In this document: positions 6,055 to 31,998 of the stretch, one piece after another
Position numbering within the stretch: position 1 is the first letter of the stretch
Layout: every line of letters begins with the position of its first letter
Assembly (NCBI GenBank): GCA_964582035.1
Contig: CAZOPZ010000001.1
Location: 27,879-60,712 of the forward strand
Direction: 5' to 3'
From: an uncultured Methanosarcinales archaeon
Lineage (GTDB): Archaea; Nanobdellota; Nanobdellia; Woesearchaeales; GW2011-AR9
Length of the DNA: 32,834 nucleotides
Notes under the pieces: generated by a model
What the model saw: the letters and a program-made list of their open reading frames with translations, nothing else
Databases searched by the model: none
Told to the model about the DNA's origin: nothing
Made by a program: the position numbers and the translations under genes

Positions 6055-6468
6055 ATGAGCCATTGCCCCCTCTGTGAAATCCCTGAAAAAGAACAGTATC
6101 GGGTAGTTAGGAATAATGATTTAGTATATGCAGCCATACCCTATGCTCCAATAACTGAAGGGCACGTGATGGTTCTGCCAAAACGGCACGCCCGCCTGCG
6201 GCAACTGATCCCCGAAGAATTAGTGAGCCTCAATGCAGTGATTGAAGACCTGAAAGACCGCTTGGTAGAGCTGTTCCCGGAACGGCACCCGTTCATATCT
6301 ACCATGAGCGATACGATGCACGCCTCCGTCCCCCAGCATGGCCATTACCACCTCATGCCGAGCAAATATAACCTGCGGGTTCTGTACGATTGCCGTGACC
6401 AAAGGATATTATCAAATAAGCCGGTAGAGAGATCAATCTTGGAAGAGATGGCACTCCGCCTGCGGTAA
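6055..6468 (+). CDS. HIT (histidine triad) family nucleotide hydrolase/transferase
   Basis: 137 aa. Histidine triad HGHYHLMP (nt 6337-6351), an N-terminal CPLCE, and GHVMVLPKRH. Confidence 0.85.
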   Translation: MSHCPLCEIPEKEQYRVVRNNDLVYAAIPYAPITEGHVMVLPKRHARLRQLIPEELVSLNAVIEDLKDRLVELFPERHPFISTMSDTMHASVPQHGHYHLMPSKYNLRVLYDCRDQRILSNKPVERSILEEMALRLR

Positions 6469-13238: not shown

Positions 13239-14387
13239 ATGAAGGCATATAAGTACTTTCTCAATGAGCCATCGCTTGATGATACAGAGCTGCTTTATGT
13301 GACTCGGGTGCTTCAGCAGGGATGGCTTTCTGCGGGGGGGGAGTTTACCAAAAAGTTCGAAGAAGCATTTGCCCGCCTCATCGGAACGCAGCATGCTTTG
13401 GCGGTCCAGTCAGGAACAGCTGCTCTTCATACAGCATTGTTGGCGATGGGAGTCGGTCCTGGAGACAAAGTAGTAATCCCAAACTATACCTGCGGTGCCT
13501 GCGTCGCTTCAGTTTTACAAGCAGGGGCCGAGCCCGTCATCATTGACATAGAGCCAAAAACTTTTGGTATGGATGTACGCCGTCTAGAAGAAGTTCTTTC
13601 TACAGATAGCATTAAGGCAGTTATGATTGTCCACGTCTATGGATTCCCCGTGCAAAATTTTGAGAAAATCGTTGCGCTCTGCCAGGAACACCACGCATTG
13701 CTGTTGGAAGATGCCAGCGAAGCGCACGGAGCAACCTATCAAGGAAAGACCATCGGATCATTTGGAGACGTTGCCGTTTTTTCTATTCGGAGCGAAAAAA
13801 TGATCGGCGTAGGAGAAGGCGGCTTGGTGCTAACGAACAATCAACATTTTTTTGAAAAAGCCCTGTTTTATGCTTCCCGAGCAGCTCCGAAACGAGGGGA
13901 GAAAGACCCCTGGTGGCATAAATACATTTATACCGACGTAGGAATGAACTATCGGCTTCCGCATGTGCTAGGAGCTATCGGCTTGGCGCAGATAGAAAAA
14001 TTCCCTTTCTTGCTGCAGAAAAAGAGATTCATCGCAGAGAGATATCGGGAATTACTGCAAGAGATTCCGGAAGTGCGTGTACAGGAAATTGCGCCATACT
14101 CCCACCCCTGCTACTGGTTGAATTGCATTCTCATTGACAAACCAGAAGAAATGGTACGGAAGATTGGCGAAGAACTGATGCAGCAGGCCATTGAGATCAG
14201 GCCCGCATTCTGGCCTTTGTCCGACTTGCCTGCATTTAAAAAATACGCACGGGGCAGCCAAGAGAACGGAATCGCTTTGTTCAAATCGATGATTGTCTTA
14301 CCTTCTTCCATCAAGTTGGCGGAACAGAATGGGCAAGGAATAGAAGAGATAGTAAAAATTCTCTCTAGAGTCATAAACACCATTTGA
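13239..14387 (+). CDS. DegT/DnrJ/EryC1/StrS PLP aminotransferase, GDP-perosamine-synthase-like
   Basis: 382 aa. EPSLDDTELLYVTRVLQQGWLSAGGEFTKKFEEAFA, SGTAALHTALLA, SIRSEKMIGVGEGG (PLP Lys) and IEIRPAFWPLSDLPAFKKY resemble Per/RfbE. The gene lies directly upstream of gmd. Confidence 0.75.
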   Translation: MKAYKYFLNEPSLDDTELLYVTRVLQQGWLSAGGEFTKKFEEAFARLIGTQHALAVQSGTAALHTALLAMGVGPGDKVVIPNYTCGACVASVLQAGAEPVIIDIEPKTFGMDVRRLEEVLSTDSIKAVMIVHVYGFPVQNFEKIVALCQEHHALLLEDASEAHGATYQGKTIGSFGDVAVFSIRSEKMIGVGEGGLVLTNNQHFFEKALFYASRAAPKRGEKDPWWHKYIYTDVGMNYRLPHVLGAIGLAQIEKFPFLLQKKRFIAERYRELLQEIPEVRVQEIAPYSHPCYWLNCILIDKPEEMVRKIGEELMQQAIEIRPAFWPLSDLPAFKKYARGSQENGIALFKSMIVLPSSIKLAEQNGQGIEEIVKILSRVINTI

Positions 14388-14514
14388 GGAGCTGGTAGAA
14401 CAAGGGGAGCGGGGTTTGTCTTTACTGGAGAATAGAAAAGCTTTTAATGGCCAGCTCGGCATACCCCTACCAACTGGCAAAGAAACGTGCTCATGAAGAT
14501 AAAGTGGAGATACC

Positions 14515-15600
14515 GTGGTTAAAAGAGCCCTTATCACCGGAATAACCGGGCAGGATGGCGCTTTCCTCGCACGGTTTTTGCTTGAAAAAGGGTACAAAGT
14601 ATATGGCACGTATAGGCGAGTTTCTACTCCAAACTTCTGGCGCCTGCAGCAATTAAACATTATTCATAAAGTAACGCTCATCCCTGCAGACCTCAGTGAC
14701 ACCACTTCCTTGTTAGAAGCCGTAACGATATCCCAACCCCAGGAGATTTATAATCTTGCTGCCCAAAGTTTTGTCGGCTCTTCTTTCGACCAGCCTCTTT
14801 TAACCACGCAGATAGATGGCAGTGGAGCAACGAGGTTCTTAGAGATCATACGCCATTTAAAGAAAAGCATAAAGTTCTACCAGGCCTCAACAAGTGAACT
14901 CTATGGCGACTCCAGCGCCGTCCCCCAAAGCGAAACCACCCCTTTCCTGCCCAATTCCCCGTATGCTATTGCCAAGCTACACTCTTTCCATATGTGCCGG
15001 GTATATAGAAAAGCGTATGGAATATTTGCCTGTAACGGAATTCTGTTTAACCACGAAAGCAGCTTGCGGGGGCTGGAATTTGTAACGAGAAAAATAACCA
15101 ACGCTGCAGCGAAAATAAAATTGGGGCTGCAAAAAGAATTACGTCTCGGAAATTTAGACGCCAAGCGTGATTGGGGCCATGCCAAAGATTACGTACAAGC
15201 CATGTGGCTGATGATGCAACAAGATCATCCGGATGACTTTGTTATTGCGACGGGAGAAACCCACACCGTGCGAGAATTCGCAGAACAAGCTTTTTCAGCA
15301 TTGGGCTTACGCTGGGAAGACTACGTGAAAGAAGATAATCGCTTATATCGGCCTTTAGAGGTCTCCATTTTATGCGGCGATGCGCAGAAAGCACAAAAGA
15401 CCTTGAAATGGAAACCCACACTGACGTTCAAAAAGCTCGTGGAAGTGATGGTGAAAACTGATTTGAGCCGGTGGAAGAGATACCTCAAAGGAGATTTTTT
15501 CCCTTGGGATGCCCCTAATTATCCCAGTGAAATAGATATCATCAGTCGGAATGCTTCCAAAGCACATAAAATACAGCCCCGATTGAAAAAATTGCTATGA
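14515..15600 (+). CDS. gmd: GDP-mannose 4,6-dehydratase
   Basis: 361 aa. GTG start preceded by GGAG (14506-14509). ALITGITGQDGAFLARFLLEKGY, YQASTSELYG, SPYAIAKL and ACNGILFNHESSLRGLEFVTRKIT. Confidence 0.9.
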   Translation: MVKRALITGITGQDGAFLARFLLEKGYKVYGTYRRVSTPNFWRLQQLNIIHKVTLIPADLSDTTSLLEAVTISQPQEIYNLAAQSFVGSSFDQPLLTTQIDGSGATRFLEIIRHLKKSIKFYQASTSELYGDSSAVPQSETTPFLPNSPYAIAKLHSFHMCRVYRKAYGIFACNGILFNHESSLRGLEFVTRKITNAAAKIKLGLQKELRLGNLDAKRDWGHAKDYVQAMWLMMQQDHPDDFVIATGETHTVREFAEQAFSALGLRWEDYVKEDNRLYRPLEVSILCGDAQKAQKTLKWKPTLTFKKLVEVMVKTDLSRWKRYLKGDFFPWDAPNYPSEIDIISRNASKAHKIQPRLKKLL

Positions 15601-21003: not shown

Positions 21004-21756
21004 ATGAGCCAGACCATGCTCCCTCTTAAAGAACTAACAGTATCTATCATCATCCCCTGCTTTAATGAAGAAGAAGGGATACCCCATCTCGCTGCACAGC
21101 TGGATCCGGTTATCGGGGAATTGCAAAAAACCTGTGCCGTAGAACTCATCTTTGTCGACGATGGCAGCACGGACAGAACGAATGCTTTGTTACACCATCA
21201 CTTTGGCCAAAGAAAGAATGCCAAAATTATTCGCCATGACGTAAATAAAAATTTGGGGGCGGCGCTCCGAACGGGATTCCAGCATGCTTCTGGAACACAT
21301 ATTGCGATGCTAGATAGCGATTGTACGTATGAGCCAAAAATACTTCTCACCCTGTTGGGGCTCCTCGACGAAAAAACGGACATCGTAACCGTTTCCCCGT
21401 ATCATCCGTTAGGTAAAGTAGAAAACGTTCCGGGCTGGAGAATTTTCCTGAGCAAAAGCTCTTCGCTGCTGTACAAACACTTGCTTGGTTCCGGAATTTA
21501 CACGCATGGTGCTATGGTAAGGGCATACAAGCGCGAGGTTTTGGAGAACGTCCATAGTGAGATACATGATTTTCTGTACGTCTCAGAAATTTTGATCAAA
21601 GCCTTGCTGAAAGGCTACAAAGTAACAGAGGTTCCCGCTACTCTGCGGGTCCGGCAATTTGGCGCCTCTAAAATGAAGCTGGCCCGTACAATCAAAAGCC
21701 ACTTGGGGCTGATGGGGAAGATTATCCTGTACAAAACGTTCAAGAGAGAACTATGA
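21004..21756 (+). CDS. GT2 polyprenol-phosphate glycosyltransferase (DPM1/ArnC-like), no TM
   Basis: 250 aa. VSIIIPCFNEEEGI...LIFVDDGSTDRT...MLDSDCTY. The stop overlaps the wecB start (ATGA). Confidence 0.8.
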   Translation: MSQTMLPLKELTVSIIIPCFNEEEGIPHLAAQLDPVIGELQKTCAVELIFVDDGSTDRTNALLHHHFGQRKNAKIIRHDVNKNLGAALRTGFQHASGTHIAMLDSDCTYEPKILLTLLGLLDEKTDIVTVSPYHPLGKVENVPGWRIFLSKSSSLLYKHLLGSGIYTHGAMVRAYKREVLENVHSEIHDFLYVSEILIKALLKGYKVTEVPATLRVRQFGASKMKLARTIKSHLGLMGKIILYKTFKREL

Positions 21757-22865
21757 AAGTTGTTACCGTTCTTGGAACCAGGCCGGAGATTATAAAGCTG
21801 TCAGCTCTTCTCCCCTTATTGGACCAGGAATTTGAACATGTTTTGGTGCACACGGGGCAACATTATGATTACAATATGGATGAAGTTTTTTTTGAGCTCC
21901 TAAAATTGAAAAAGCCCAGTTATACCTTAAACATTGGCTCTCATCAGCAGGGGAAACAAACTGCTTTGATGTTGGAAAGATTTGAAGAGGTGCTCTTAAA
22001 AGAGAAACCAGACCTGGTTATTGTGCAGGGAGACACCAATACGGCCCTAGCCGGGGCATTGGCTGCAGTTAAGTTGCATGTCCCGGTGATGCATGTAGAA
22101 GCAGGATGCCGGTCATTTAACCGTAAGATGCCGGAAGAGATAAATCGGGTTATTGCGGATCATGTTGCCGATTATCTTATCGCTCCTGATAATGAATGCG
22201 TCAACCATTTAAAAGACGAGGGTATCGCTGCAGAGAAAATAAAGCTTCTGGGAAGTACTGCGTTTGAAGCAGTCACCAAGAATAAAAGATTTATTGATCC
22301 GTCTTTGATTAAAAAGCTTTGTCTGGAAAAAAATGCATTTGTTTTGGTCACCATCCATCGTGCTGAAAACACAGATAACGGAGAACATTTACAGAATATT
22401 CTTTCCGTACTTAATGAAATTGCGGAGGAAACAACGGTAGTATTCCCCATGCACCCCAGAACTAAAAAAATGATAGCTAAAAATAATCTTCAAGTAAGCC
22501 AGAGAATAAAAGTCATTGAACCGCAGGATTACTTGTCATTTCTTGCTCTTCTTTCCGCATCAAAAGTCTGCATCTCTGACAGTGGCGGAATTCAGGAAGA
22601 AGCTTTAGTGTTTAATGTTCCCTGCCTTATACCCCGGGAAGAAACCGAATGGATGAGATTAGTAGAAAAAGGAAAGAACTTTCTTGTAGGCACCGATCCC
22701 AAGAGAATCATCTCTAACGTTCGGCGGCTCTTGGATGATGAGAAAGAGCTTCAACGGATAAAACGTATCTCCGTCCATTACGACGCAGCAGTAAGCCCGA
22801 AAATTATTCAGCTCATTAAATCACTTGCAGTTCATAACCTTACGAGTCGGAAGCCTCCTCTTTGA
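21753..22865 (+). CDS. wecB: UDP-N-acetylglucosamine 2-epimerase (non-hydrolysing type)
   Basis: 370 aa. VLGTRPEIIKL, HTGQHYDYNM, VQGDTNTALAGALAA, HVEAGCRSFNRKMPEEINR and SDSGGIQEE. Confidence 0.9.
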   Translation: MKVVTVLGTRPEIIKLSALLPLLDQEFEHVLVHTGQHYDYNMDEVFFELLKLKKPSYTLNIGSHQQGKQTALMLERFEEVLLKEKPDLVIVQGDTNTALAGALAAVKLHVPVMHVEAGCRSFNRKMPEEINRVIADHVADYLIAPDNECVNHLKDEGIAAEKIKLLGSTAFEAVTKNKRFIDPSLIKKLCLEKNAFVLVTIHRAENTDNGEHLQNILSVLNEIAEETTVVFPMHPRTKKMIAKNNLQVSQRIKVIEPQDYLSFLALLSASKVCISDSGGIQEEALVFNVPCLIPREETEWMRLVEKGKNFLVGTDPKRIISNVRRLLDDEKELQRIKRISVHYDAAVSPKIIQLIKSLAVHNLTSRKPPL

Positions 22866-22891: not shown

Positions 22892-23803
22892 ATGCTCGAA
22901 AACGCAAAAAGAAAGTTCCCCCCTTGGTTAAGGGTGCCGTTCAGTTCAGCTCGCCAGTTTCAGAAAACGGTCGGCGTGATTGCGGATCTCCAGTTGAACA
23001 CTATCTGTGAAGAAGGCGCCTGCCCGAACAAAGCGGAGTGCTTCAGCCATGGAGTTGCCACGTTCATGCTCTTAGGGAAAACCTGCACCAGAAACTGTAA
23101 ATATTGTAACGTTCCTCCGGGAAAACCACGCCCCCTTGATGAGAGTGAGCCTCTTCGAGTTGCTGAAGCCGTACGAAGATTGGGCCTTTCTTATGTTGTC
23201 ATTACGTCAGTAAATCGCGACGACCTGCCGGTTGGCGGAGCTTCACAGTTCATCCAGACAATACAAGAGATAAAGCGGGTACAGCCTTCCTGTAGCATTG
23301 AGACCCTCATCCCCGATTTTAAAGGAAACGAAAAAGTGCTTAAAAATATTTCTACACTCCCTATTGAAGTGCTGAGCCATAATATTGAGACGGTTCAAGA
23401 AATTTTCCCTCGGATACGGCCGCAGGGGAACTATTTCCTTTCACTAGCCGTATTAAAAAAAATGAAACAAAGTAATCCTTTACTGAAAACCAAATCTGGC
23501 TTCATGCTGGGATTGGGAGAGACCGCAGAACAAATCGAACAGGTGTTAACCGATCTCCAAAAACAAGGATGTGACTTTGTTACCATCGGCCAATATCTGC
23601 CCCCCTCAGCCCAGCATTATCCTCTCTCTCGATACTATTCGCCGGAAGAATTTCAACTTTGGAAAGAGAACGCTTTGCAAAAAGGCTTTCTGCATGTGGA
23701 AGCGGGCCCTTTGGTGCGAAGCTCCTATCGCGCCGATAGGCTGATAGCCTACACTGCTCCCCCCACCAAAACAGATTATTGCGAGGTGAAGAGATTTGCC
23801 TGA
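22892..23803 (+). CDS. lipA: lipoyl synthase (radical SAM)
   Basis: 303 aa. CEEGACPNKAEC (auxiliary cluster) and CTRNCKYCNV (radical-SAM CxxxCxxC). Confidence 0.93.
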   Translation: MLENAKRKFPPWLRVPFSSARQFQKTVGVIADLQLNTICEEGACPNKAECFSHGVATFMLLGKTCTRNCKYCNVPPGKPRPLDESEPLRVAEAVRRLGLSYVVITSVNRDDLPVGGASQFIQTIQEIKRVQPSCSIETLIPDFKGNEKVLKNISTLPIEVLSHNIETVQEIFPRIRPQGNYFLSLAVLKKMKQSNPLLKTKSGFMLGLGETAEQIEQVLTDLQKQGCDFVTIGQYLPPSAQHYPLSRYYSPEEFQLWKENALQKGFLHVEAGPLVRSSYRADRLIAYTAPPTKTDYCEVKRFA

Positions 23804-25184
23804 GCAGCAGCATCCAATCTATGATGCAGCCATCATAGGAGGTGGCCCTGCAGGATATAGCGCGGCGCTCCGCATTGCGCAGTTGGGGGGAAAAGCGTGC
23901 CTTATTGAAAAAGATAAGGTGGGGGGCACTTGTGCTACTGTGGGCTGCATACCCACGAAAGCGCTCAGCCATCTTGCAGAATTTTCAAAAACAGCACAAC
24001 AGATGAAAGCTTTGGGGATTCGGAAGGGGGGCGGCTCTTGGAATTTTCAGAAAGTGCAGGCCCATATATGGCAGATTGTCGCAGATGCAGTGGCCGGCAT
24101 TCAATGGACACTCAAAAACCAGGGCATACCTGTAATTAGGGGAACTGCCGTCGTTACTGGAAAAAATGAAGTTGCAGTCTTAAATCAGGATGGCAAAGCC
24201 GAAACAAGCCTTGTTGCAAGAAACATTGTTTTGGCGACCGGATCATCCCCCAGACGGCTAGAACATCTCCCCCCCATCCTTTCAGTCATAACCAGTGATG
24301 AGGTGCTCTCCTTAGAAGCCTTGCCGAAAACTTTAGGCATCATCGGCGGAGGCTACATCGGGCTGGAATTTGCATCCATCTTTAGTGCTTTAGGAACAAA
24401 GGTGCATCTTATTGAAGCATTGCCAACCATTGCGCCCACAGAAGAACCGGAAATTGCCGATGCTATTCAGCGTTTTTTAAAAAAGTCCGGAGTAGAGGTC
24501 ATCACGAATGCCACAATAGGCACAGTACAGGAAACCAAATGTTCCCTCTCTCTCACTATCATCAGCGGGAATGATTGTCGATCACCACCTCTACAGGTTG
24601 AAAAGCTCCTCGTCGCCGTCGGAAGAGTTCCGAACCTGCCGGTCGAAGAGCTGCATCGCCTGGGTATCTCTTACACGCCAGCAGGCATCAGCGTGAATGC
24701 CTACCTAGAAACAAATGTTCCTGGAGTATATGCCATTGGAGATGTCATCTCCACGCCCCGGTTAGCGCATGTGGGTATCCATGAGGGGAGAGTCGCCGCT
24801 GAGAATATCATGGGAAAAAGAAGAGCAATATCGTATGCAACAATTCCCTCATGCATGTACACTGTTCCAGAAGTGGCCAGCATCGGCCAACGGGAAGGGT
24901 CTGTAGGAAGATGCTTTTTCTTAGCCAACGGGAAAGCCAAGGCCATGCACCGGACGGAAGGATTTATAAAAGTGTACCTCAAACAACAAAAACTAGTCGG
25001 AGCAGCAATAGTCGGATGGCAAGCTTCAGAACTCCTGGGGGTTGTTGCGGGTTTTTTAGGAGAAGATGTAGAAGAGATCAAGCAAAAGATTATAGCGCAC
25101 CCCACCCTCTCAGAAATGATTCCTGAAGCGCTGATTGATGCGGGACGGCAAGTTTCCTCCTCCCCGAAGCCGCTCTGGTCATGA
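23796..25184 (+). CDS. lpd: dihydrolipoyl dehydrogenase (E3)
   Basis: 462 aa with a TTG start overlapping the lipA stop. YDAAIIGGGPAG (FAD), GGTCATVGCIPTK (redox disulfide, nt 23931-23948), GGGYIGLEF (NAD) and the C-terminal HPTLSE. Confidence 0.9.
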   Translation: MPEQQHPIYDAAIIGGGPAGYSAALRIAQLGGKACLIEKDKVGGTCATVGCIPTKALSHLAEFSKTAQQMKALGIRKGGGSWNFQKVQAHIWQIVADAVAGIQWTLKNQGIPVIRGTAVVTGKNEVAVLNQDGKAETSLVARNIVLATGSSPRRLEHLPPILSVITSDEVLSLEALPKTLGIIGGGYIGLEFASIFSALGTKVHLIEALPTIAPTEEPEIADAIQRFLKKSGVEVITNATIGTVQETKCSLSLTIISGNDCRSPPLQVEKLLVAVGRVPNLPVEELHRLGISYTPAGISVNAYLETNVPGVYAIGDVISTPRLAHVGIHEGRVAAENIMGKRRAISYATIPSCMYTVPEVASIGQREGSVGRCFFLANGKAKAMHRTEGFIKVYLKQQKLVGAAIVGWQASELLGVVAGFLGEDVEEIKQKIIAHPTLSEMIPEALIDAGRQVSSSPKPLWS

Positions 25185-25960
25185 AACCGCTGGTAAAGAA
25201 AGAGATGGAATCCCTGCTGGAGAATAAAATCATGGAAAATAAAAGCGTGCAGATTCTCGAACACGAACGCCTCCCATATGCCGAAGGCCTAGCTTTGCAA
25301 CGCCGCCTCCAGATACAGCGGGAAAAAGAAGAAATTCCTGACACCATTCTCCTGCTGGAGCATGACTCCGTTTATACCGTGGGAAAAGATATGGCATCGG
25401 AGCAAGCCTTTATTAAAAAAAAACTTCCTGCACCTTTGGAGCATGTGGACCGAGGCGGAAAAATAACCTACCATGGCCCGGGCCAGTTAGTTGCTTATTT
25501 TGTATGGAAGATCACCCTGCCAGAAGTCGGCAATTTTGTCGATGCTCTAGAGAACCTTACAATCAGCCTTTTGCGCACGTATGGAATTGCGGCCTATTCC
25601 CGAAAAAGCGAGAAAGATGCGTATGGAAAAAACATTCGGGGGGCTTGGGCATGGGCAGACGGGATGCACAAAAAAATTGCCGCGCAAGGTATAGCGACTA
25701 AGAAAATAGCGGGAGAAGAGAACACGCTGGTGACTATGCATGGGTTTGCATTAAATGTTTCTACGGACTTGAGTTACTTCTCTTACATCCACCCCTGCGG
25801 ATTTACTTATGAAGTCATGGCTTCTATGGAATCTCTTCTGCAGAAAAAAATAGATATGCAAGAGCTGAAGCTGCTCCTCACGAATAAGCTTCAAAAAGGG
25901 TTATATGCTTCTGCTGATTGTTCCAAAGATAATTCCCCGGAAAGAACCCCTCTTACATAA
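25181..25960 (+). CDS. lipB: octanoyl/lipoyl transferase
   Basis: 259 aa. ATGA overlap with lpd. RGGKITYHGPGQLV, KKIAAQGI (catalytic Lys region), MHGFALNV and HPCG (catalytic Cys). Confidence 0.85.
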   Translation: MKPLVKKEMESLLENKIMENKSVQILEHERLPYAEGLALQRRLQIQREKEEIPDTILLLEHDSVYTVGKDMASEQAFIKKKLPAPLEHVDRGGKITYHGPGQLVAYFVWKITLPEVGNFVDALENLTISLLRTYGIAAYSRKSEKDAYGKNIRGAWAWADGMHKKIAAQGIATKKIAGEENTLVTMHGFALNVSTDLSYFSYIHPCGFTYEVMASMESLLQKKIDMQELKLLLTNKLQKGLYASADCSKDNSPERTPLT

Positions 25961-25970: not shown

Positions 25971-25992
25971 ACCGAATAAAAGGCTTTTTTTG

Positions 25993-26949
25993 ATGGTTAA
26001 TTCCCCACAAGAAGCCCTCGCCCTCTACCAGAAAATGCTTTATATCAGGATGTTTGAAGAAAAAGTTACTTTTCTCTTTACCCGCGGGCTGATTCATGGA
26101 ACTGCCCATTTTTATATCGGACAGGAAGCGGTGGCTGTGGGTGTCTGTTCAGCTCTGCAGAAAGATGATTTTGTTACCAGCACGCACCGGGGGCATGGCC
26201 ATGCCCTTGCGAAAGGGCTTCATCCGGGCAGGTTCCTTGCAGAACTACAGGGGAAAAAAGATGGTTTTTGTGGAGGTCGGGCTGGCACGCAACATACCAT
26301 CTCTTTTACAGACCATTTTCTGGCAAATGGAGTAACCGGGGGTGCGGCAGTTACGGGAACAGGAATAGCTTTGGCTTACAAAATGCAAAAAAAAGAGCGG
26401 GTGGTGGTCTCTTTCATCGGTGACGGAGCCATGAATGAAGGGCACTTCCACGAAGCGCTTAACCTGGCAGCCGTTTGGAAATTGCCCATCATCTACGTGT
26501 GTGAAAATAATCTCTACGCCATGTCGACCCACACCCAAGAAACCATGATAGTCCAGGAGCTGTATAAAAGAGCAGCATCCTACGGCTTAGAAACGTTTGG
26601 TGTCGACGGCAATGATGTGCTCGCCGTACAGCAGCAGATACAAGCGATTATCGGCGGAGTGCGGGGAGGAAACGGCCCGGTATTCTTGGAGTGTAAAACC
26701 TATCGCCAGAGCGGCCACTCTAAAAATGACCAACGGGTCTATCGAACACGCAAGGAAGAAGAAGCATGGAAACAGAAAGATCCTATTCTCCGGCTTGCAC
26801 ACGTACTCAGAGGAACATTTCACGCTGCTGAAAGCGAGTTACAAGCAGTTCAGGCCGCTGTGGCTGAGCAAATAGAAGAAGCAGTGCACTTCGCAGAAAG
26901 CAGCCCTTTCCCGATGAAAGAAACGGCCCAGGACCACGTTTTTGCATAG
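25993..26949 (+). CDS. 2-oxoacid (pyruvate/acetoin-type) dehydrogenase E1 alpha subunit, ThDP-dependent
   Basis: GDGAMNEGHFHEALNLAAVWKLPIIYVCENN (ThDP motif) and YRQSGHSKNDQRVYRTRKEEEAWKQKDPI. The track start at 25990 is a TTG one codon upstream of the ATG. Confidence 0.88.
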   Translation: MVNSPQEALALYQKMLYIRMFEEKVTFLFTRGLIHGTAHFYIGQEAVAVGVCSALQKDDFVTSTHRGHGHALAKGLHPGRFLAELQGKKDGFCGGRAGTQHTISFTDHFLANGVTGGAAVTGTGIALAYKMQKKERVVVSFIGDGAMNEGHFHEALNLAAVWKLPIIYVCENNLYAMSTHTQETMIVQELYKRAASYGLETFGVDGNDVLAVQQQIQAIIGGVRGGNGPVFLECKTYRQSGHSKNDQRVYRTRKEEEAWKQKDPILRLAHVLRGTFHAAESELQAVQAAVAEQIEEAVHFAESSPFPMKETAQDHVFA

Positions 26950-26967: not shown

Positions 26968-27930
26968 ATGAGAACCATCAGTTACCTGGAAGCGATCCGA
27001 GAAGCAATCATCGAAGAAATGAATAGGGACCCCACGGTATTTTTTATGGGGGAAGACATCGCTGCGTATGGGGGAGCTTTTGGTGTTTCCAAAGGCCTGC
27101 TCCAACTTTTTGGGCCGGAAAGAGTAAGGAACACGCCGATGTCAGAAGCGGCAATAACAGGTGTGGCTGCCGGAGCCGCCATTGCCGGCATGCGGCCCAT
27201 TGTTGAAATCATGTTCATGGATTTTATAACACTAGCCATGGACCAGCTCCTGAACCATGCCACACAATATCGCTACACCTCCAATGGGCAAATTAAAGTT
27301 CCTTTTGTCTTGCGGACGCCTTCAGGCGGTGGGAGGGGATACGGTTCGACGCATTCTAAATCCCTGGAACCCTTGCTGCAAGGAATACCTGGTCTGAAAA
27401 TAGTTGCTCCTTCTACAGCGTACGATGCCAAAGGGCTTCTCAAAGCTGCAATCCGGGATGACAACCCCATTATTTTTATTGAAAACAAACTCCTTTACTC
27501 AAAAGTTGGCGAAGTTCCCGAAGAGGAGTATATCCTCCCTTTGGAGCAAGCCACTATAGTGCGCGAAGGTTCGGTTCTCACAGTAATCTCTTACGGAAAG
27601 ATGCTTCAAGAGAGCGTGGAGGCGGTCACGCAGCTTGGGGCAGCAGTGGAGATTATCGACCTGAGAACACTGCGCCCAATTGACATAGCGTTGATAACGG
27701 CGTCCGTTAAAAAGACGGGAAAAGTGCTCATCGTCGAGGAGGGATTTAAAACGGGAGGCCTGGCAGCCGAGATTACGGCGCAGATTGGAGAACGGTGTTT
27801 CGATTACCTTGATGCACCCATAAGACGCCTGGCGTCGGAAGATGTCCCTATCCCTTGCACGCCCATTCTTGAACAGGAAGTTCTCCCCAACAAATCAAAA
27901 ATCATGAAAGCGATTCAAGAGCTGCTCTGA
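26968..27930 (+). CDS. 2-oxoacid dehydrogenase E1 beta subunit
   Basis: 320 aa. FMGEDIAAYGGAFGVSKGL, RVRNTPMSEAAITG, HSKSLEP and IDLRTLRPID. Confidence 0.9.
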   Translation: MRTISYLEAIREAIIEEMNRDPTVFFMGEDIAAYGGAFGVSKGLLQLFGPERVRNTPMSEAAITGVAAGAAIAGMRPIVEIMFMDFITLAMDQLLNHATQYRYTSNGQIKVPFVLRTPSGGGRGYGSTHSKSLEPLLQGIPGLKIVAPSTAYDAKGLLKAAIRDDNPIIFIENKLLYSKVGEVPEEEYILPLEQATIVREGSVLTVISYGKMLQESVEAVTQLGAAVEIIDLRTLRPIDIALITASVKKTGKVLIVEEGFKTGGLAAEITAQIGERCFDYLDAPIRRLASEDVPIPCTPILEQEVLPNKSKIMKAIQELL

Positions 27931-27931
27931 C

Positions 27932-29050
27932 ATGTACACCATAATCCTCCCAAAAATAGAGCCGAATACCGAGGAAGCAACTATTGTCGAATGGCTGAAG
28001 AAAGAAGGCGATCTTGTCAAAAAAGGGGAAGCCCTCTTTGTCATTGAAACTTCAAAGGCGGCAATTGAAGTAGAAGCAGAAGAAACGGGCACCCTCCGCA
28101 AGATCATGGTCCCCGAAGGGAAAACGGTTCCCGTCTTGAGCGTCCTCGGAGTCCTCGGGAGCAAAGAGGAGCCGCTGCCAGATCTTTCTTCTTTTTCTGC
28201 TCTGCCGACGAAACACAAACCAGAGCTTACAGAACAGATACCAAAAAAAATGGAAGGCCAAGAGCCAGCGCCTTTTCCAAAAGCTTCCCCCGCTGCCAAG
28301 AGGGTGGCTCGAGAGCAAAAGATTGAGCTCCACCAGATACCTGCCACCGGTCCAGGGGGGAGGATAGTCGAAAGTGATGTGTGGGATTACCTAAAAGCGA
28401 ACAAAGGAACCGGGAAAAATAACCAAAAGGATCGTGTTCTTATCATTGGTGCAGGGAGGGGTGGTGAAGTTGTTGCCGACATTCTCCAGCAGAATGGGTT
28501 GGTCGTGGTTGGCTTTTTAGATGACAACGAAACACTCTGGGGAAAAGAGCTTCTTGGTAAAAAAATATATGGGGGCCTGGGGCTTGTTGATCGGCTGCTC
28601 TCTGAAAAGATGTTTGATAGCGTGATTGTTTCTATCACGAGTAATATGAAGCTAAGAAAAATAATTTATGAGAGAATGGCTCTGAAGAGCATAAACTTTG
28701 TGAATGTTATCCATCCAAAAGCTGACATCAATTCTTCCGTAGAGCTGGGAAAAGGGAACATTATCGGGGCATTTGCGTATATTGGCTATGGCACAAGAGT
28801 CGGAAACAATAATCTCATAACGGCTCACAGTAATATTGAGCACCACAACATCTTGGGGAGCCACATCTTATTTGGGCCGGGAGTGATGACCAGCGGCAAC
28901 GTCACTATTCATGATGAATGTTCACTGGGAGCTGGCGTGAATATCGAGCCCCATGTGACGATTGGGAATAATGTGGCTATTGCCAGCGGGTCGACAGTTA
29001 TTTACGACTTGCCACCACACACGGTGCTGAAAAGCGAGGTAAAACGATGA
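27932..29050 (+). CDS. E2-like fusion of a lipoyl domain, a peripheral-subunit (E1/E3)-binding domain and a PglD/NeuD-type hexapeptide sugar N-acetyltransferase domain (no CAT-like E2 core)
   Basis: 372 aa. Residues 1-77 form the lipoyl domain (VIETSKAAIEVEA, K42 at nt 28055-28057). Residues 78-117 are a P/A/E-rich linker. Residues 118-154 are ASPAAKRVAREQKIELHQIPATGPGGRIVESDVWDYL (PSBD, nt 28283-28393). Residues 167-372 are RVLIIGAGRGGEVVADIL..GFLDDN followed by hexapeptide repeats with IEHHN (nt 28430-29047). No DHRxxDG motif is present. Confidence 0.8.
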   Translation: MYTIILPKIEPNTEEATIVEWLKKEGDLVKKGEALFVIETSKAAIEVEAEETGTLRKIMVPEGKTVPVLSVLGVLGSKEEPLPDLSSFSALPTKHKPELTEQIPKKMEGQEPAPFPKASPAAKRVAREQKIELHQIPATGPGGRIVESDVWDYLKANKGTGKNNQKDRVLIIGAGRGGEVVADILQQNGLVVVGFLDDNETLWGKELLGKKIYGGLGLVDRLLSEKMFDSVIVSITSNMKLRKIIYERMALKSINFVNVIHPKADINSSVELGKGNIIGAFAYIGYGTRVGNNNLITAHSNIEHHNILGSHILFGPGVMTSGNVTIHDECSLGAGVNIEPHVTIGNNVAIASGSTVIYDLPPHTVLKSEVKR

Positions 29051-30138
29051 TCCCTATCGCCAAACCCTTTCTCGGAGAAGAAGAAAAAATAGCGGTTTTA
29101 GAGGTACTGGATTCAGGAATCCTGGCGCAAGGCAAAAAAGTAAGAGAATTTGAACAGCAATTTGCGGCATTTGTCGGAGTGCAGCATGCGATCGCCACCT
29201 CCAACGGAACAACGGCGCTCCATGCAGCTTTGCTGGCTCATGGCATTCAGGAAGGCGACGAAGTTATCACCTCGCCTTTTTCTTTTATTGCAACGGCAAA
29301 TGCCATTCGCATGTGTGGAGCTACTCCCGTATTTGTGGATATCGATGAAAAAACATTGAATATAGATCCCGAGCTCATTGAAAAAAATATTACGAAAAAA
29401 ACCAAAGCCCTTCTCCCCGTGCACCTTTTTGGCTTACCCGCAGACATGGGAAGAATAACAGCTATCGCCGAAAGATACCAGTTAGCAGTCATTGAGGATG
29501 CCTGCCAGGCGCATGGTGCAGAAGTTCTCGGAAAGAAAGTAGGCTCTTTTGGCACCGGCTGCTTTTCGTTCTATGCAACGAAAAACATGACAACGGGAGA
29601 AGGGGGGATGATTACGACAGATGATAGCCATATTGCTGAGAAAGTTCGGAGAATTATCAATCACGGTTCCTCGCAGAAATATCATCACGAAATTCTGGGA
29701 TATAATTATCGCCTGACAGAGATAGCGGCAGCGCTCGGGCTGGCCCAATTAAAAAAATTGCCCAGATATAATGAAGCAAGAAAGCAAAATGCCGCACAAT
29801 TAACGGCTCTCCTCAGAGGAATACCGGGGCTCATTCTTCCCGTTTCACATGAAGGGCGCGTCTTCCACCAGTACACGCTGCGTATCACCGAAAAAAGTGC
29901 AAAGAATAGGGATGATGTGGTTCATTTTCTTGCCGATCACGGAATCCAAGCCGCGGTCTTTTATCCCGTGCCCATCCACAAACAGAAAGCGTACAGCGGA
30001 TATGAGACCGGCTCACTTCCGGTTGCGGAATGTATAGCAAAAGAAGTTCTTTCCCTCCCCATTCACCCAGGATTAGGATCAGAAGACTTGGCATACCTTG
30101 CTGCCCATCTCCACAAAGCGCTGGGTGAAAAGGACTAA
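29047..30138 (+). CDS. DegT/DnrJ/EryC1/StrS PLP aminotransferase (WbpE/GnnB/PglE-like nucleotide-sugar aminotransferase)
   Basis: 363 aa. ATGA overlap with the fusion gene. NGTTALHAALLA, SFYATKNMTTGEGGMI (PLP Lys) and GYNYRLTEIAAALGLAQL. Confidence 0.88.
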   Translation: MIPIAKPFLGEEEKIAVLEVLDSGILAQGKKVREFEQQFAAFVGVQHAIATSNGTTALHAALLAHGIQEGDEVITSPFSFIATANAIRMCGATPVFVDIDEKTLNIDPELIEKNITKKTKALLPVHLFGLPADMGRITAIAERYQLAVIEDACQAHGAEVLGKKVGSFGTGCFSFYATKNMTTGEGGMITTDDSHIAEKVRRIINHGSSQKYHHEILGYNYRLTEIAAALGLAQLKKLPRYNEARKQNAAQLTALLRGIPGLILPVSHEGRVFHQYTLRITEKSAKNRDDVVHFLADHGIQAAVFYPVPIHKQKAYSGYETGSLPVAECIAKEVLSLPIHPGLGSEDLAYLAAHLHKALGEKD

Positions 30139-30139
30139 G

Positions 30140-31117
30140 ATGATCAAAGTGGCGGTTATCGGAGTGGGCTCTATTGGACAACATCATGCACGGGTTTACT
30201 TTCACACTGAAGCGATACAGCTGGTAGCCGTCGCGGATGCTCAGGAAGAGCAAGCACAAAAAGTTGCTAAGCAATACAATACAAAAGCATACCAAAATTA
30301 CCAAGAATTGCTCGATAAAGAGGACTTTGATGCCGTGTCCATCGCCGTTCCTACGAGCTTACACCGCGAGGTCGCAGGCGCCATGCTCCGGAGAGGGAAA
30401 CACGTGCTTCTCGAAAAGCCGATTGCGGCTGCGGAACAAGAGGCCCAAGAGCTCATTGAACTGGCGGATAAAAACAATGTCAAATTAATGGTTGGGCATA
30501 TTGAGCGGTTTAATCCTGCGATTCTCGAATTAAAAAGGCGCTTGCAGAAAGGCGAGCTGGGAGAGATCTACCATGTCGATGTCCAACGGATCGGGCCTTT
30601 TCCTGCGCGGATCACTGATGTGGGGGTTATTATCGACTTGTCCGTCCATGATTTAGATATAATCACCCATCTTCTAGAGGACTTTCCTTCACGGATCTAT
30701 GCAGAAACCCAACAAAAGCTGCACCCCCATCATGAAGATTCGGTCACGGCCTTGCTTCGCTACCGAAACGGAGCGTTGGTCATCTTGAATGAAAATTATG
30801 TCTCGCCCACAAAGACCAGACAGCTTAAAATCTTCGGCAAGAAAGGGATGTTTCTGGTTAATTATTTGGATCAAGAACTGTATTTCTATGAGAATAAAAG
30901 CTTCTCAGCAGATAATTGGGAAAGCGTTACCGAAGGGGATATGAAGAAGATAATTATACCAAAAAAAGAGCCCTTGCAGCTAGAGATAGAAGCTTTTGTT
31001 TCCTCTTTCAGCCAGAATCTCCCCCCGCCAATAGATGGAACTGCCGGCTTAAACGCCCTGAAAATAGCCCATGCGGTCCTTCGTTCAGCAAGAGAGAAAA
31101 CAGTCATAGAATGGTGA
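30140..31117 (+). CDS. Gfo/Idh/MocA-family NAD(P) oxidoreductase (WbpB/GnnA-like nucleotide-sugar dehydrogenase candidate)
   Basis: MIKVAVIGVGSIGQHHARVY Rossmann start, VLLEKPIAAAEQEA (EKP motif) and MVGHIERFNPA. I prefer ATG 30140, 1 nt after the upstream stop. The track start at 30098 overlaps the upstream gene. Confidence 0.85.
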   Translation: MIKVAVIGVGSIGQHHARVYFHTEAIQLVAVADAQEEQAQKVAKQYNTKAYQNYQELLDKEDFDAVSIAVPTSLHREVAGAMLRRGKHVLLEKPIAAAEQEAQELIELADKNNVKLMVGHIERFNPAILELKRRLQKGELGEIYHVDVQRIGPFPARITDVGVIIDLSVHDLDIITHLLEDFPSRIYAETQQKLHPHHEDSVTALLRYRNGALVILNENYVSPTKTRQLKIFGKKGMFLVNYLDQELYFYENKSFSADNWESVTEGDMKKIIIPKKEPLQLEIEAFVSSFSQNLPPPIDGTAGLNALKIAHAVLRSAREKTVIEW

Positions 31118-31998
31118 ACAGTATGAAAGTGCTGATAACAATCCCTGCCTATAACGAAGAAAGAACTCTTCCTTTGGTTCTTGAAGAGATAAAAGAGGTC
31201 ATGAAGCAGACCAGCCATCAGTACGAAATTCTGGTCGTTGATGATGGCTCTCGAGATAGAACTGCAGAAATTTCCCAGAGGCATGGCGCAGTCGTCGTTT
31301 CAAAAAAGCACCAGGGCCTGGCAGAAACTTTCAAGAAAGAGATACAGGAATGCCTGAAGCGCAAAGCGGATATCATTGTCCACACGGATGCGGACGGGCA
31401 ATATCCCCCCCAGCACATCCCGGAGCTCATTAAAAAAATCCAGGAAGGATACGACCTCGTCCTCGGCAGCAGATTCCGGATACCGGGAGCGCCCCTGCCT
31501 TTTCTCAAACGAGTGGGGAATAGAGCTTTTTCTCGTATCTTAAGCTCTTTGACAAAAGTAAAGCTGACTGACACGACAACGGGCTTTCGGGCTTTCACTG
31601 CCGAAGTGGCCAGAGAGATCACTTTTATTAATACTTTTACGTACACGCAAGAACAAATAATTAAAGTAGCGAAGCAGGGATTCCGCATTGCTGAAATCCC
31701 CATACGAAGCAGAAAAACGCGAGAGAGCAGATTATTCAAGAATCCATTTCAATATGCCATGCGGGCCTGGATTAATATCTTTCGGATTTATCGAGATTAC
31801 GAGCCGTTGGCATTTTTTGGAAGAATTGGCGTTTTCGGGCTATCGGTGGGAATAAGTATTGGCTTTTATTTTGTCTATCTCCACTTCACTTCGGGAATTC
31901 GGGGACACTTGGGGTTATTATTTTTGATGATGATCCTTTTGGTATTTGGCTTACAGACGGTATTGTTTGGATTTTTGGCTGATATGATGAAACGTTAA
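31111..31998 (+). CDS. GT2 polyprenol-phosphate glycosyltransferase with two C-terminal TM helices (GtrB/DPM1/ArnC-like)
   Basis: VLITIPAYNEERTL...ILVVDDGSRDRT...HTDADGQY, with C-terminal hydrophobic LAFFGRIGVFGLSVGISIGFYFV and LLFLMMILLVFGLQTVLFGFLADMM. The start is ATG 31111 or 31123. The track start at 30916 lies inside the upstream gene. Confidence 0.85.
   Translation: MVNSMKVLITIPAYNEERTLPLVLEEIKEVMKQTSHQYEILVVDDGSRDRTAEISQRHGAVVVSKKHQGLAETFKKEIQECLKRKADIIVHTDADGQYPPQHIPELIKKIQEGYDLVLGSRFRIPGAPLPFLKRVGNRAFSRILSSLTKVKLTDTTTGFRAFTAEVAREITFINTFTYTQEQIIKVAKQGFRIAEIPIRSRKTRESRLFKNPFQYAMRAWINIFRIYRDYEPLAFFGRIGVFGLSVGISIGFYFVYLHFTSGIRGHLGLLFLMMILLVFGLQTVLFGFLADMMKR

Follow-up and report, generated by a model that had tools for sequence, protein, structure and literature searches.

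An E2-like lipoyl protein with a PglD/PerB-type acyltransferase domain, and its proposed role in the N-acylation of nucleotide amino sugars

Introduction

What does a lipoyl-bearing, E2-like protein do when the domain that should hand its acyl group to coenzyme A (CoA) has given way to a sugar acyltransferase? This question is raised by a gene in a 32,834-nucleotide stretch of DNA (hereafter the window) from an uncultured archaeon, filed under Methanosarcinales in GenBank and under Woesearchaeales in GTDB (GCA_964582035.1, contig CAZOPZ010000001.1, positions 27,879 to 60,712 of the forward strand). The gene (window positions 27932-29050, + strand) encodes a 372-aa protein, here called the fusion, in which a lipoyl domain, a flexible linker and a peripheral-subunit-binding domain, as found in E2 proteins of 2-oxoacid dehydrogenase complexes, are followed by a PglD_N lobe and a left-handed beta-helix acyltransferase domain.

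From its domains, relatives and gene neighbourhoods we judge it probable, with some reserve, that the fusion both carries and transfers the acyl group, as the core of a dedicated mini complex of the 2-oxoacid-dehydrogenase type, the end product of which would be an N-acylated nucleotide amino sugar and not acyl-CoA. A more specific proposal, which we put forward tentatively, is that the S-acyl-dihydrolipoyl arm is itself the acyl donor, with no CoA thioester involved, and that the pair of E1 and fusion is a portable cassette, which in different glycan pathways has time and again taken over from N-acetyltransferases that depend on acetyl-CoA.

Results

One reading frame joins an E2-like N-terminus to a sugar acyltransferase

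The fusion gene is a single unbroken frame with an ATG start, and Pfam recovered Biotin_lipoyl, E3_binding, PglD_N and Hexapep in it (Table 1), in agreement with an initial annotation of the window, made from the DNA letters, which had described four parts in one open reading frame (ORF). The lipoyl-lysine, K42, lies within the motif IETSKA, and a check of its codon (AAG, 28055-28057) placed it exactly where that annotation had put it. The annotation had also held that the chloramphenicol acetyltransferase (CAT)-like catalytic domain of E2 proteins is missing, and this was borne out by each method applied: PF00198 (2-oxoacid_dh) gave no match in the fusion in a Pfam scan even at E <= 1, the E2 equivalog models of NCBIfam aligned to residues ~3-165 only and stayed far under their cutoffs, and Foldseek returned no match to a CAT-like fold for the structure model. 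With all 372 residues accounted for, a cryptic CAT-like domain was ruled out.

The C-terminal half most resembles sugar acyltransferases. Its two Pfam domains score above their cutoffs. The NCBIfam model TIGR03570 (NeuD/PglB/VioB family) matched residues 169-366 with 152.8 bits, against a cutoff of 160.8, and the beta-helix also matched LpxA and LpxD models at 1e-15 to 1e-11. Its catalytic motifs are intact. Residues E303-H304-H305-N306 are encoded at 28838-28849, with the His304 codon at 28841-28843, and H304, the predicted general base, aligns with His141 of PerB, the residue replaced in entries 4eaa and 4eab (H141N, H141A). The segment GPGVMTSG, which by comparison with PglD probably includes the oxyanion-hole glycine, comes after His304 in the beta-helix domain. 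The PglD_N lobe, presumed to be the nucleotide-sugar binding lobe, reads GAGRGGE where relatives have GxGGH; it has kept a GxGxG pattern and the FLDD motif (GFLDDN), and its residues G173, G175 and D197 are conserved in family alignments.

An AlphaFold model of the fusion, built on 44 homologues, had a mean predicted local distance difference test score (pLDDT) of 88.8. Its N-terminal half consists of a beta-sandwich (1-76), a disordered stretch (92-111) and two helices between residues 120 and 158; after a short disordered hinge (160-164) come a Rossmann-like lobe and a regular beta-helix. In Foldseek searches the N-terminus resembled a human lipoyl domain, and the C-terminal half matched the perosamine N-acetyltransferase PerB, with a template-modelling score (TM) of 0.88 and a root mean square deviation of 1.3 A. 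PglB-ATD, VioB and PglD were found as well, and TM values to PerB, PglB-ATD and VioB were 0.88-0.90.

Such an architecture could be an artefact, namely a gene for the lipoyl and binding domains and a separate acetyltransferase gene joined by an assembly or sequencing indel, one of the circumstances that the initial annotation had named as fatal to its reading. However, the identical 372-aa protein is present in NCBI assembly GCA_016177285.1 (Candidatus Woesearchaeota) and in an independent Logan assembly, and orthologues at two further loci (L005, 89% identical; L015, 53% identical) are single ORFs too. Together with the single-ORF architecture of the whole family, these findings exclude an artefact with near certainty; no point in its favour was found.

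The fusion represents a widespread family without a curated name

A word-indexed search yielded ~45 full-length homologue clusters of 358-405 aa at 28-89% identity. Among 44 aligned homologues, Pfam detected Biotin_lipoyl and Hexapep in all 44, PglD_N in 33, E3_binding in 16 and PF00198 in none. We then considered the best 150 matches of an exhaustive profile search over 1.84 billion representatives; among these, the architecture is shared by at least 145 full-length proteins (330-420 aa), each representing a cluster at 50% identity, and the representatives that were inspected gave one continuous match across ~365 profile positions. Since scores still exceeded 300 bits at rank 150, the family must be considerably larger than 145 clusters at 50% identity.

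K42 was invariant in the 44 aligned homologues and kept in 144 of the 145 representatives, and H304 and P316 were kept in all 145; judging from this pattern, K42 and H304 are under strong selection. A122 in a helix of the binding domain was present in 143 of 145. The residue following the catalytic His is again His in 124 of the 145 fusions, and the residue preceding the lipoyl-lysine is Ser, Thr or Ala throughout the family (E-T-S/T/A-K-A). This lipoyl motif is nearer to the ESVKA of H-protein than to the DKA of canonical E2.

Thus the family is real and widespread, but it has no curated name, its members being listed under generic names such as 'E3 binding domain-containing protein', 'biotin/lipoyl-containing protein' and 'sugar O-acyltransferase NeuD family'. 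All genome matches were metagenome-assembled genomes (MAGs), of Woesearchaeota, Nanoarchaeia, Bacteroidota, Kapaibacterium, Deltaproteobacteria, Thermodesulfobacteriota, Omnitrophota and SAR202; as the patterns for the genome scan were derived from the 15 closest sequences, an archaeal clade, bacterial genomes are under-sampled in this list. Full-text literature searches found no description of the architecture or of lipoyl-dependent sugar N-acylation, in line with the initial annotation, which knew of none; the partial precedents are QncN/L/M (PMC6335953) and AcoC-type proteins, compared below. One candidate for a prior description (PMC4875605) was rejected because 'lipoyl' there refers to lipid acylation.

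E1 genes and amino-sugar enzymes accompany the fusion across phyla

We compared 19 distinct fusion-bearing loci. In 18 of them E1 alpha and E1 beta directly adjoin the fusion, as separate genes or as one protein of ~650 aa, and these loci span DPANN archaea, Bacteroidota, Deltaproteobacteria/Thermodesulfobacteriota, Omnitrophota, SAR202 and others. Linkage to amino-sugar enzymes was similarly tight, with a DegT aminotransferase in 14 of the 19 loci and a Gfo-type dehydrogenase in 12. The E1 alpha-E1 beta merger lies directly upstream of the fusion at the bacterial loci L087 (6052-8004) and L090 (6023-8008). In a crude neighbor-joining tree, calculated with no support values, all fusion-linked E1 beta sequences fell outside the large clade linked to canonical E2.

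The sugar pathways themselves differ between loci. The window, L005, L015 and others have a route composed of a Gfo 3-dehydrogenase, DegT and WecB. At L087 the cassette lies between two FdtA ketoisomerases and DegT, a route to dTDP-3-amino-3,6-dideoxyhexose in which it takes the normal place of FdtC/QdtC. At L088 it lies between NeuB and a group made up of a PseB-like dehydratase, DegT and a CMP-transferase, a nonulosonic-acid route in which it has the place of PseH/PglD. The cassette of L090 is surrounded by a complex cluster that includes a dehydratase, DegT and amidotransferases. Read from gene content, at least three amino-sugar pathways have the fusion at their N-acetyltransferase step.

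LipA, LipB and E3 accompany the cassette only in archaeal loci (window, L005, L015), where all of them score above curated cutoffs. LipA and LplA are found near the fusion at L001, and LplA at L088. Lipoate genes in cis would fit archaeal hosts that have no other use for lipoate, and bacteria could use their housekeeping enzymes. In another bacterial glycan cluster with a fusion (L003, 4992-6863), a UDP-sugar dehydrogenase gene is split by an intein (PF14890).

Lipoyl domain and acyltransferase also occur as separate proteins

A Methanosarcinales MAG (L027, 7356-10363) has, one after another, genes for a 260-aa hexapeptide acyltransferase, a stand-alone 89-aa lipoyl protein, E1 alpha, E1 beta, a membrane protein and DegT. 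The acyltransferase is of another subtype, without the PglD_N lobe, and the lipoyl protein is 60% identical to fusion residues 4-84. A Woesearchaeota MAG (L048, 1801-3948) encodes a 76-aa stand-alone lipoyl protein after E1 alpha and E1 beta, and no acyltransferase lies close to them. An ORF located upstream (1345-1899, - strand) resembles, by eye, acyl carrier protein (ACP) at its C-terminus, and gave no Pfam match. A third locus (L085) had been considered as a clean case of a split gene, and was dropped because its E1 genes are truncated (E1 alpha shortened to 258 aa, E1 beta cut to a 172-aa Pyr domain) and no lipoyl remnant is present. The locus would be a cassette in decay or else a variant that does without a lipoyl domain. 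Gfo, DegT and a UDP-sugar dehydrogenase are encoded beside it, and its contig also carries integrase and HNH genes.

The operon and glycan island of the window

In the window the fusion is part of a tightly packed + strand operon, in which start and stop codons overlap or are separated by gaps of at most 30 nt (Table 1). The E1 beta stop codon ends 1 nt ahead of the fusion start, and the DegT start overlaps the fusion stop codon. E1 alpha reached 336 bits with TIGR03182, under the cutoff of 393.85, and is closer to the E1 alpha of human pyruvate dehydrogenase (PDH; 203 bits) than to that of branched-chain 2-oxoacid dehydrogenase (BCKDH; 111-123 bits). From its sequence E1 can be called PDH-like as opposed to BCKDH-like, and acetoin-type or other small substrates are possible. 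The Gfo/Idh/MocA oxidoreductase, the start of which was called at 30140 and could also be at 30098, is probably a UDP-N-acetylglucosamine (UDP-GlcNAc) 3-dehydrogenase; the NCBIfam model that fits it best, NF040723, describes the archaeal form of this enzyme, and its best match in the PDB, 7bvj, is presumably GnnA, a UDP-GlcNAc 3-dehydrogenase.

Table 1. Operon genes around the fusion and domains of the fusion protein (window coordinates)
Feature	Position	Strand	Evidence
Family-2 glycosyltransferase (GT2), operon head	21004..21756	+	Pfam
WecB-type non-hydrolysing UDP-GlcNAc 2-epimerase	21753..22865	+	TIGR00236, 352 bits, above cutoff 210
Lipoyl synthase LipA	22892..23803	+	TIGR00510, 352 bits, above cutoff 310; CX3CX2C and CX4CX5C motifs present
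E3 dihydrolipoyl dehydrogenase	23796..25184	+	TIGR01350, 416.6 bits, above cutoff 408.8; CATVGC redox disulfide, HPTLSE
Octanoyl/lipoyl transferase LipB	25181..25960	+	TIGR00214, 114.8 bits, above cutoff 83.55; Pfam LplA-B_cat
E1 alpha, thiamine diphosphate (ThDP)-dependent, PDH type	25990..26949	+	Pfam E1_dh, 2.2e-77; GDG...NN ThDP motif
E1 beta	26968..27930	+	Transket_pyr and Transketolase_C; NF006667, 369 bits, above cutoff 321
Fusion gene, 372 aa	27932..29050	+	Lipoyl domain, linker, peripheral-subunit-binding domain, PglD_N lobe, left-handed beta-helix acyltransferase
Fusion: lipoyl domain, aa 1-78	27932..28165	+	Pfam Biotin_lipoyl 4-72, E=1.2e-15
Fusion: flexible linker, Pro/Glu/Lys-rich, aa 79-115	28166..28276	+	pLDDT <50 at residues 92-111
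Fusion: peripheral-subunit (E3/E1) binding domain, aa 116-158	28277..28405	+	Pfam E3_binding 116-150, 2.9e-13; helices 120-128, 147-158
Fusion: PglD_N Rossmann-like lobe, aa 168-248	28433..28675	+	Pfam PglD_N 168-248, E=1.4e-9
Fusion: left-handed beta-helix acyltransferase domain, aa 249-372	28676..29047	+	Hexapep, best stretch 323-356, E=1.3e-12
DegT-family sugar aminotransferase	29047..30138	+	Pfam DegT, 3.1e-132; PDB matches 7b0d, QdtB, perosamine synthase, WbpE
Gfo/Idh/MocA oxidoreductase	30140..31117	+	NF040723, 331 bits, under cutoff 450; best PDB 7bvj
Family-2 glycosyltransferase (GT2), operon tail	31111..31998	+	Pfam

The remainder of the window forms a glycan island that encodes glycosyltransferases, a flippase, PMT_2 proteins, a GDP-mannose 4,6-dehydratase with a second DegT, a methyltransferase and an ATP sulfurylase. 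Among window ORFs of at least 120 aa, neither a canonical E2 nor another acetyltransferase was found. The second DegT and the GDP-mannose 4,6-dehydratase (13239-15600, + strand) form a perosamine-type branch, for which no stand-alone N-acetyltransferase is present in the window; given this absence, and since PerB is the closest solved relative of the fusion's acyltransferase half, GDP-perosamine is a possible alternative or second acceptor.

Other features of the window were recorded alongside. A LipB-type octanoyltransferase in a DPANN archaeon with a reduced genome makes the octanoyl donor puzzling, as LipB normally requires octanoyl-ACP. The ATP sulfurylase (1234-2412, + strand) and a HIT-family protein (6055-6468, + strand) may point to sulfated or otherwise activated glycan precursors. 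An unusual 954-aa fusion ORF (2473-5337, + strand) combines a cytidylyltransferase-like region (aa 17-90), a PPDK_N ATP-grasp-type domain (179-312) and a phosphoenolpyruvate-utilising mobile domain (880-948), and a 185-aa ORF (37-594, - strand) corresponds to the C-terminal half only (profile positions 199-346) of UDP-GlcNAc 2-epimerase, a truncated second WecB-like copy.

Discussion

Proposed mechanism

To our knowledge, reductive acylation of a lipoyl group is the sole chemistry of a pair of E1 alpha/beta and a lipoyl domain. The resulting acyl-dihydrolipoyl thioester needs an acyltransferase, and since the only conserved one is fused in the same chain, we propose that the arm delivers its acyl group there. 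Domain content, conservation, synteny and intact catalytic motifs are observed; every chemical step given below is inferred, as are the nature of the 2-oxoacid and acceptor and the lack of a CoA intermediate. E1 alpha/beta, with ThDP, would decarboxylate a 2-oxoacid, most likely pyruvate on sequence grounds, and reductively acylate the lipoyl group on K42. Flexible linkers would then bring the S-acyl-dihydrolipoyl arm to the active site of the presumably trimeric PglD/PerB-type beta-helix. There the PglD_N lobe would hold a nucleotide amino sugar, whose amino group would be deprotonated by His304 and would receive the acyl group from the thioester. The dihydrolipoyl arm would be re-oxidised with NAD+ by E3 docked on the binding domain. 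That beta-helix acyltransferases can use a carrier-tethered thioester is known from LpxA and LpxD, which use acyl-ACP.

In the window, the acceptor would most likely be UDP-GlcNAc3N, provided by the adjacent 3-dehydrogenase and aminotransferase, and the acyl group would be acetyl from pyruvate. WecB would 2-epimerise the acylated product to the manno form for use by the flanking glycosyltransferases, and LipA and LipB of the same operon would make the lipoyl cofactor.

Observations that weigh against the proposal

Several observations weigh against this proposal. The beta-helix is a near-threshold member of the acetyl-CoA-dependent NeuD/PglD family with a conventional thioester site, and it may use acetyl-CoA. 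It is puzzling what such a complex would gain over acetyl-CoA if it simply transfers acetyl, above all in bacteria, where acetyl-CoA is presumably plentiful; that they keep a dedicated E1 nevertheless is a hint that other acyl groups than acetyl come from some of the E1 enzymes. The E3_binding domain is detectable by Pfam in just 16 of the 44 aligned members, bacterial loci have no E3 in cis, and at one locus (L013) the fusion has no E1 within 10 kb.

Furthermore, the acyltransferase occurs without the arm. L085 (6264-8708) keeps a stand-alone acyltransferase that is 49% identical to the C-terminal half of the fusion and has no lipoyl or binding domain. The stand-alone protein P0022, which is 52% identical to the acyltransferase half, is encoded between WbqC and a thermosome gene on a 2.9-kb contig with no lipoyl or E1 gene. 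Judging from P0022 and L085, a fused arm may not be essential to the domain, which could perhaps use acetyl-CoA or a lipoyl protein supplied in trans. Moreover, both P0022 and a second stand-alone relative, P0028 (the two being 49-52% identical to the fusion), are without the GxPAK and GxGGH motifs, so that absence of these motifs is not strictly tied to fusion, which weakens motif loss as proof of CoA independence.

Alternative explanations

These points bear on three other explanations. In one of them, the beta-helix would act as a non-homologous E2 core: CoA, either free or tightly bound, would receive the acyl group of the lipoyl arm, and the acyl-CoA so formed would serve to N-acylate the sugar at the same or a neighbouring site. 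We regard such a relay as unlikely, while acknowledging that the fold and the catalytic His are those of acetyl-CoA-dependent enzymes, that the TIGR03570 score is near threshold, that close stand-alone relatives have no lipoyl domain, and that CAT-fold and beta-helix-fold enzymes can be isofunctional, as in type A and type B chloramphenicol acetyltransferases. However, an exchange to CoA would be superfluous, since the flexible arm carries its acyl group as a thioester anyway; the C-terminal GxPA(K/R) of the CoA-dependent relatives is missing in 145 of 145 representatives; and the neighbourhoods hold no conserved CoA-handling gene. Alternatively, the protein might be an ordinary acetyl-CoA-dependent sugar N-acetyltransferase, whose lipoyl and binding domains tether it to E1 and E3 or serve another reaction, such as redox or regulatory coupling or the use elsewhere of a C2 unit made by E1. 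P0022, P0028 and the lipoyl-free enzyme of L085 can all be quoted for this view, as can the C-branching carried out by E1-like ThDP enzymes in sugar clusters (YerE, AviB1/B2). We find it improbable all the same: the conserved lipoyl-lysine and the LipA, LipB and E3 genes in the operon suggest a working redox-acyl cycle, an acceptor enzyme is needed after reductive acylation and no other acyltransferase is conserved in the loci, and both the fusion and its adjacency to E1 have been maintained over phyla and different sugar pathways.

It is also conceivable that the operon encodes a minimal PDH of central metabolism, the beta-helix replacing the E2 core solely for the general acetyl-CoA supply of the DPANN host. 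E1 is PDH-like, E3 scores above its equivalog cutoff, and some lineages are credited with a PDH in published Woesearchaeota reconstructions (PMC5994134, PMC8421398), but we consider this very improbable, because the PglD_N nucleotide-sugar lobe has been retained and conserved, the gene lies within glycan clusters in every phylum, where it takes the N-acetyltransferase slot, and bacterial hosts presumably own a canonical PDH or a pyruvate:ferredoxin oxidoreductase. The initial annotation had offered two readings, in which an acyl group derived from E1 ends on an amino sugar or, alternatively, the protein is an E2 surrogate that makes acyl-CoA. Domain, family and neighbourhood evidence favours the former and counts against the latter.

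Implications

If transfer from the lipoyl arm to an amino sugar is confirmed, lipoyl swinging-arm chemistry would have a new output, an amide on a sugar in place of acyl-CoA, and hexapeptide acyltransferases would have a new type of donor. The complex would be the first of the 2-oxoacid-dehydrogenase type to yield a glycan building block, a new use of protein-bound lipoate, and would install acyl groups, acetyl or others according to the specificity of E1, straight from 2-oxoacids. The cassette is a possible 2-oxoacid route to N-acyl decorations of O-antigens, capsules, S-layer and flagellin glycans and nonulosonic acids, and several unexplained N-acyl groups become testable.

The reading of DPANN genomes would be affected as well. 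E1, E3, LipA and LipB of DPANN/Woesearchaeota have been read as a PDH feeding acetyl-CoA (PMC5994134, PMC8421398). Where the fusion is the sole 'E2', the genes would instead work for cell-surface glycan synthesis, and that conclusion may be mistaken. The family, large and strongly conserved, makes the proposed new use of protein-bound lipoate directly testable.

Comparison with known systems

The fusion resembles the canonical E2 proteins of the pyruvate, 2-oxoglutarate and branched-chain complexes in its N-terminal lipoyl domain with a beta-turn lysine, its linker of the Pro/Ala/Glu type and its binding domain, and its gene likewise comes right after E1 alpha/beta, with E3 in the operon. In contrast, the CAT-like catalytic and core-forming domain (PF00198, DHRxxDG) is missing and a PglD-type domain stands in its place; the Asp that precedes the lipoyl-lysine of canonical E2 is S, T or A in the fusion family; the predicted acceptor is a sugar amine instead of CoA; and the assembly is probably a trimer, unlike the 24- or 60-mer of E2. 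As the defining catalytic domain is absent, the fusion is not an E2 in the strict sense. An E2-like protein with a non-CAT catalytic part has a precedent in AcoC of acetoin dehydrogenase, which joins a lipoyl domain to a C-terminal part with an alpha/beta-hydrolase fold; AcoC makes acetyl-CoA and has no link to sugars. The N-terminal 160 residues of the fusion match positions 5-132 of the AcoC-type model (NF011457 / PRK14875).

With PglD, PerB, PglB-ATD, VioB and NeuD (TIGR03570) the fusion shares the two-lobe fold, the aligned catalytic His (PerB His141 / PglD His125), the FLDD motif and the setting in nucleotide amino-sugar pathways. It differs from them by ~165 additional N-terminal residues, which comprise the lipoyl and binding domains, and by the pairing with E1 alpha/beta (18 of 19 loci). 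Two motifs present in PerB, VioB and PglB-ATD are absent from all 145 fusions, namely the C-terminal GxPA(K/R/E), which 6 of 7 stand-alone relatives have, and the N-lobe GxGG(H/Q), found in all 7. The residue after the catalytic His is Asp in PerB and PglB-ATD and His or Asp in the stand-alone set, while His prevails in the fusions. With fold and His in place, a score just under the cutoff and two shared motifs missing, the fusion is at most a divergent NeuD/PglD member.

LpxA and LpxD have the same type of fold and likewise transfer an acyl group from the thioester of a carrier arm to a UDP-sugar, in the case of LpxD to an amine; their carrier is the phosphopantetheine of ACP, unfused and with no E1 or E3, whereas in the fusion it would be a lipoyl-lysine in the same chain. 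Quinocarcin-type biosynthesis provides the example of a specialised set in which a ThDP enzyme, a lipoyl domain and an acyltransferase (QncN/QncL/QncM, and SclQ1-4) give a C2 unit to ACP and not to free CoA (PMC6335953). The proposed cassette would similarly divert an acyl group to a biosynthetic acceptor. The Qnc set differs in having an E2-type acyltransferase and a ketose phosphate donor used via a transketolase-like enzyme, with no sugar N-acylation and no beta-helix.

Finally, the pathway of the window follows the same logic as WbpB/WbpE/WbpD/WbpI of Pseudomonas, GnnA/GnnB and the Methanococcus UDP-GlcNAc3NAc(A) pathway, that is, 3-dehydrogenase, aminotransferase, N-acyltransferase and 2-epimerase, except that the E1-fed lipoyl fusion stands where those pathways have the acetyl-CoA-dependent WbpD/WlbB step. 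Altogether, we propose that the fusion would act as a 2-oxoacid dehydrogenase complex does until acyl-lipoyl is formed, and from there on like an N-acetyltransferase of the PglD/WbpD type.

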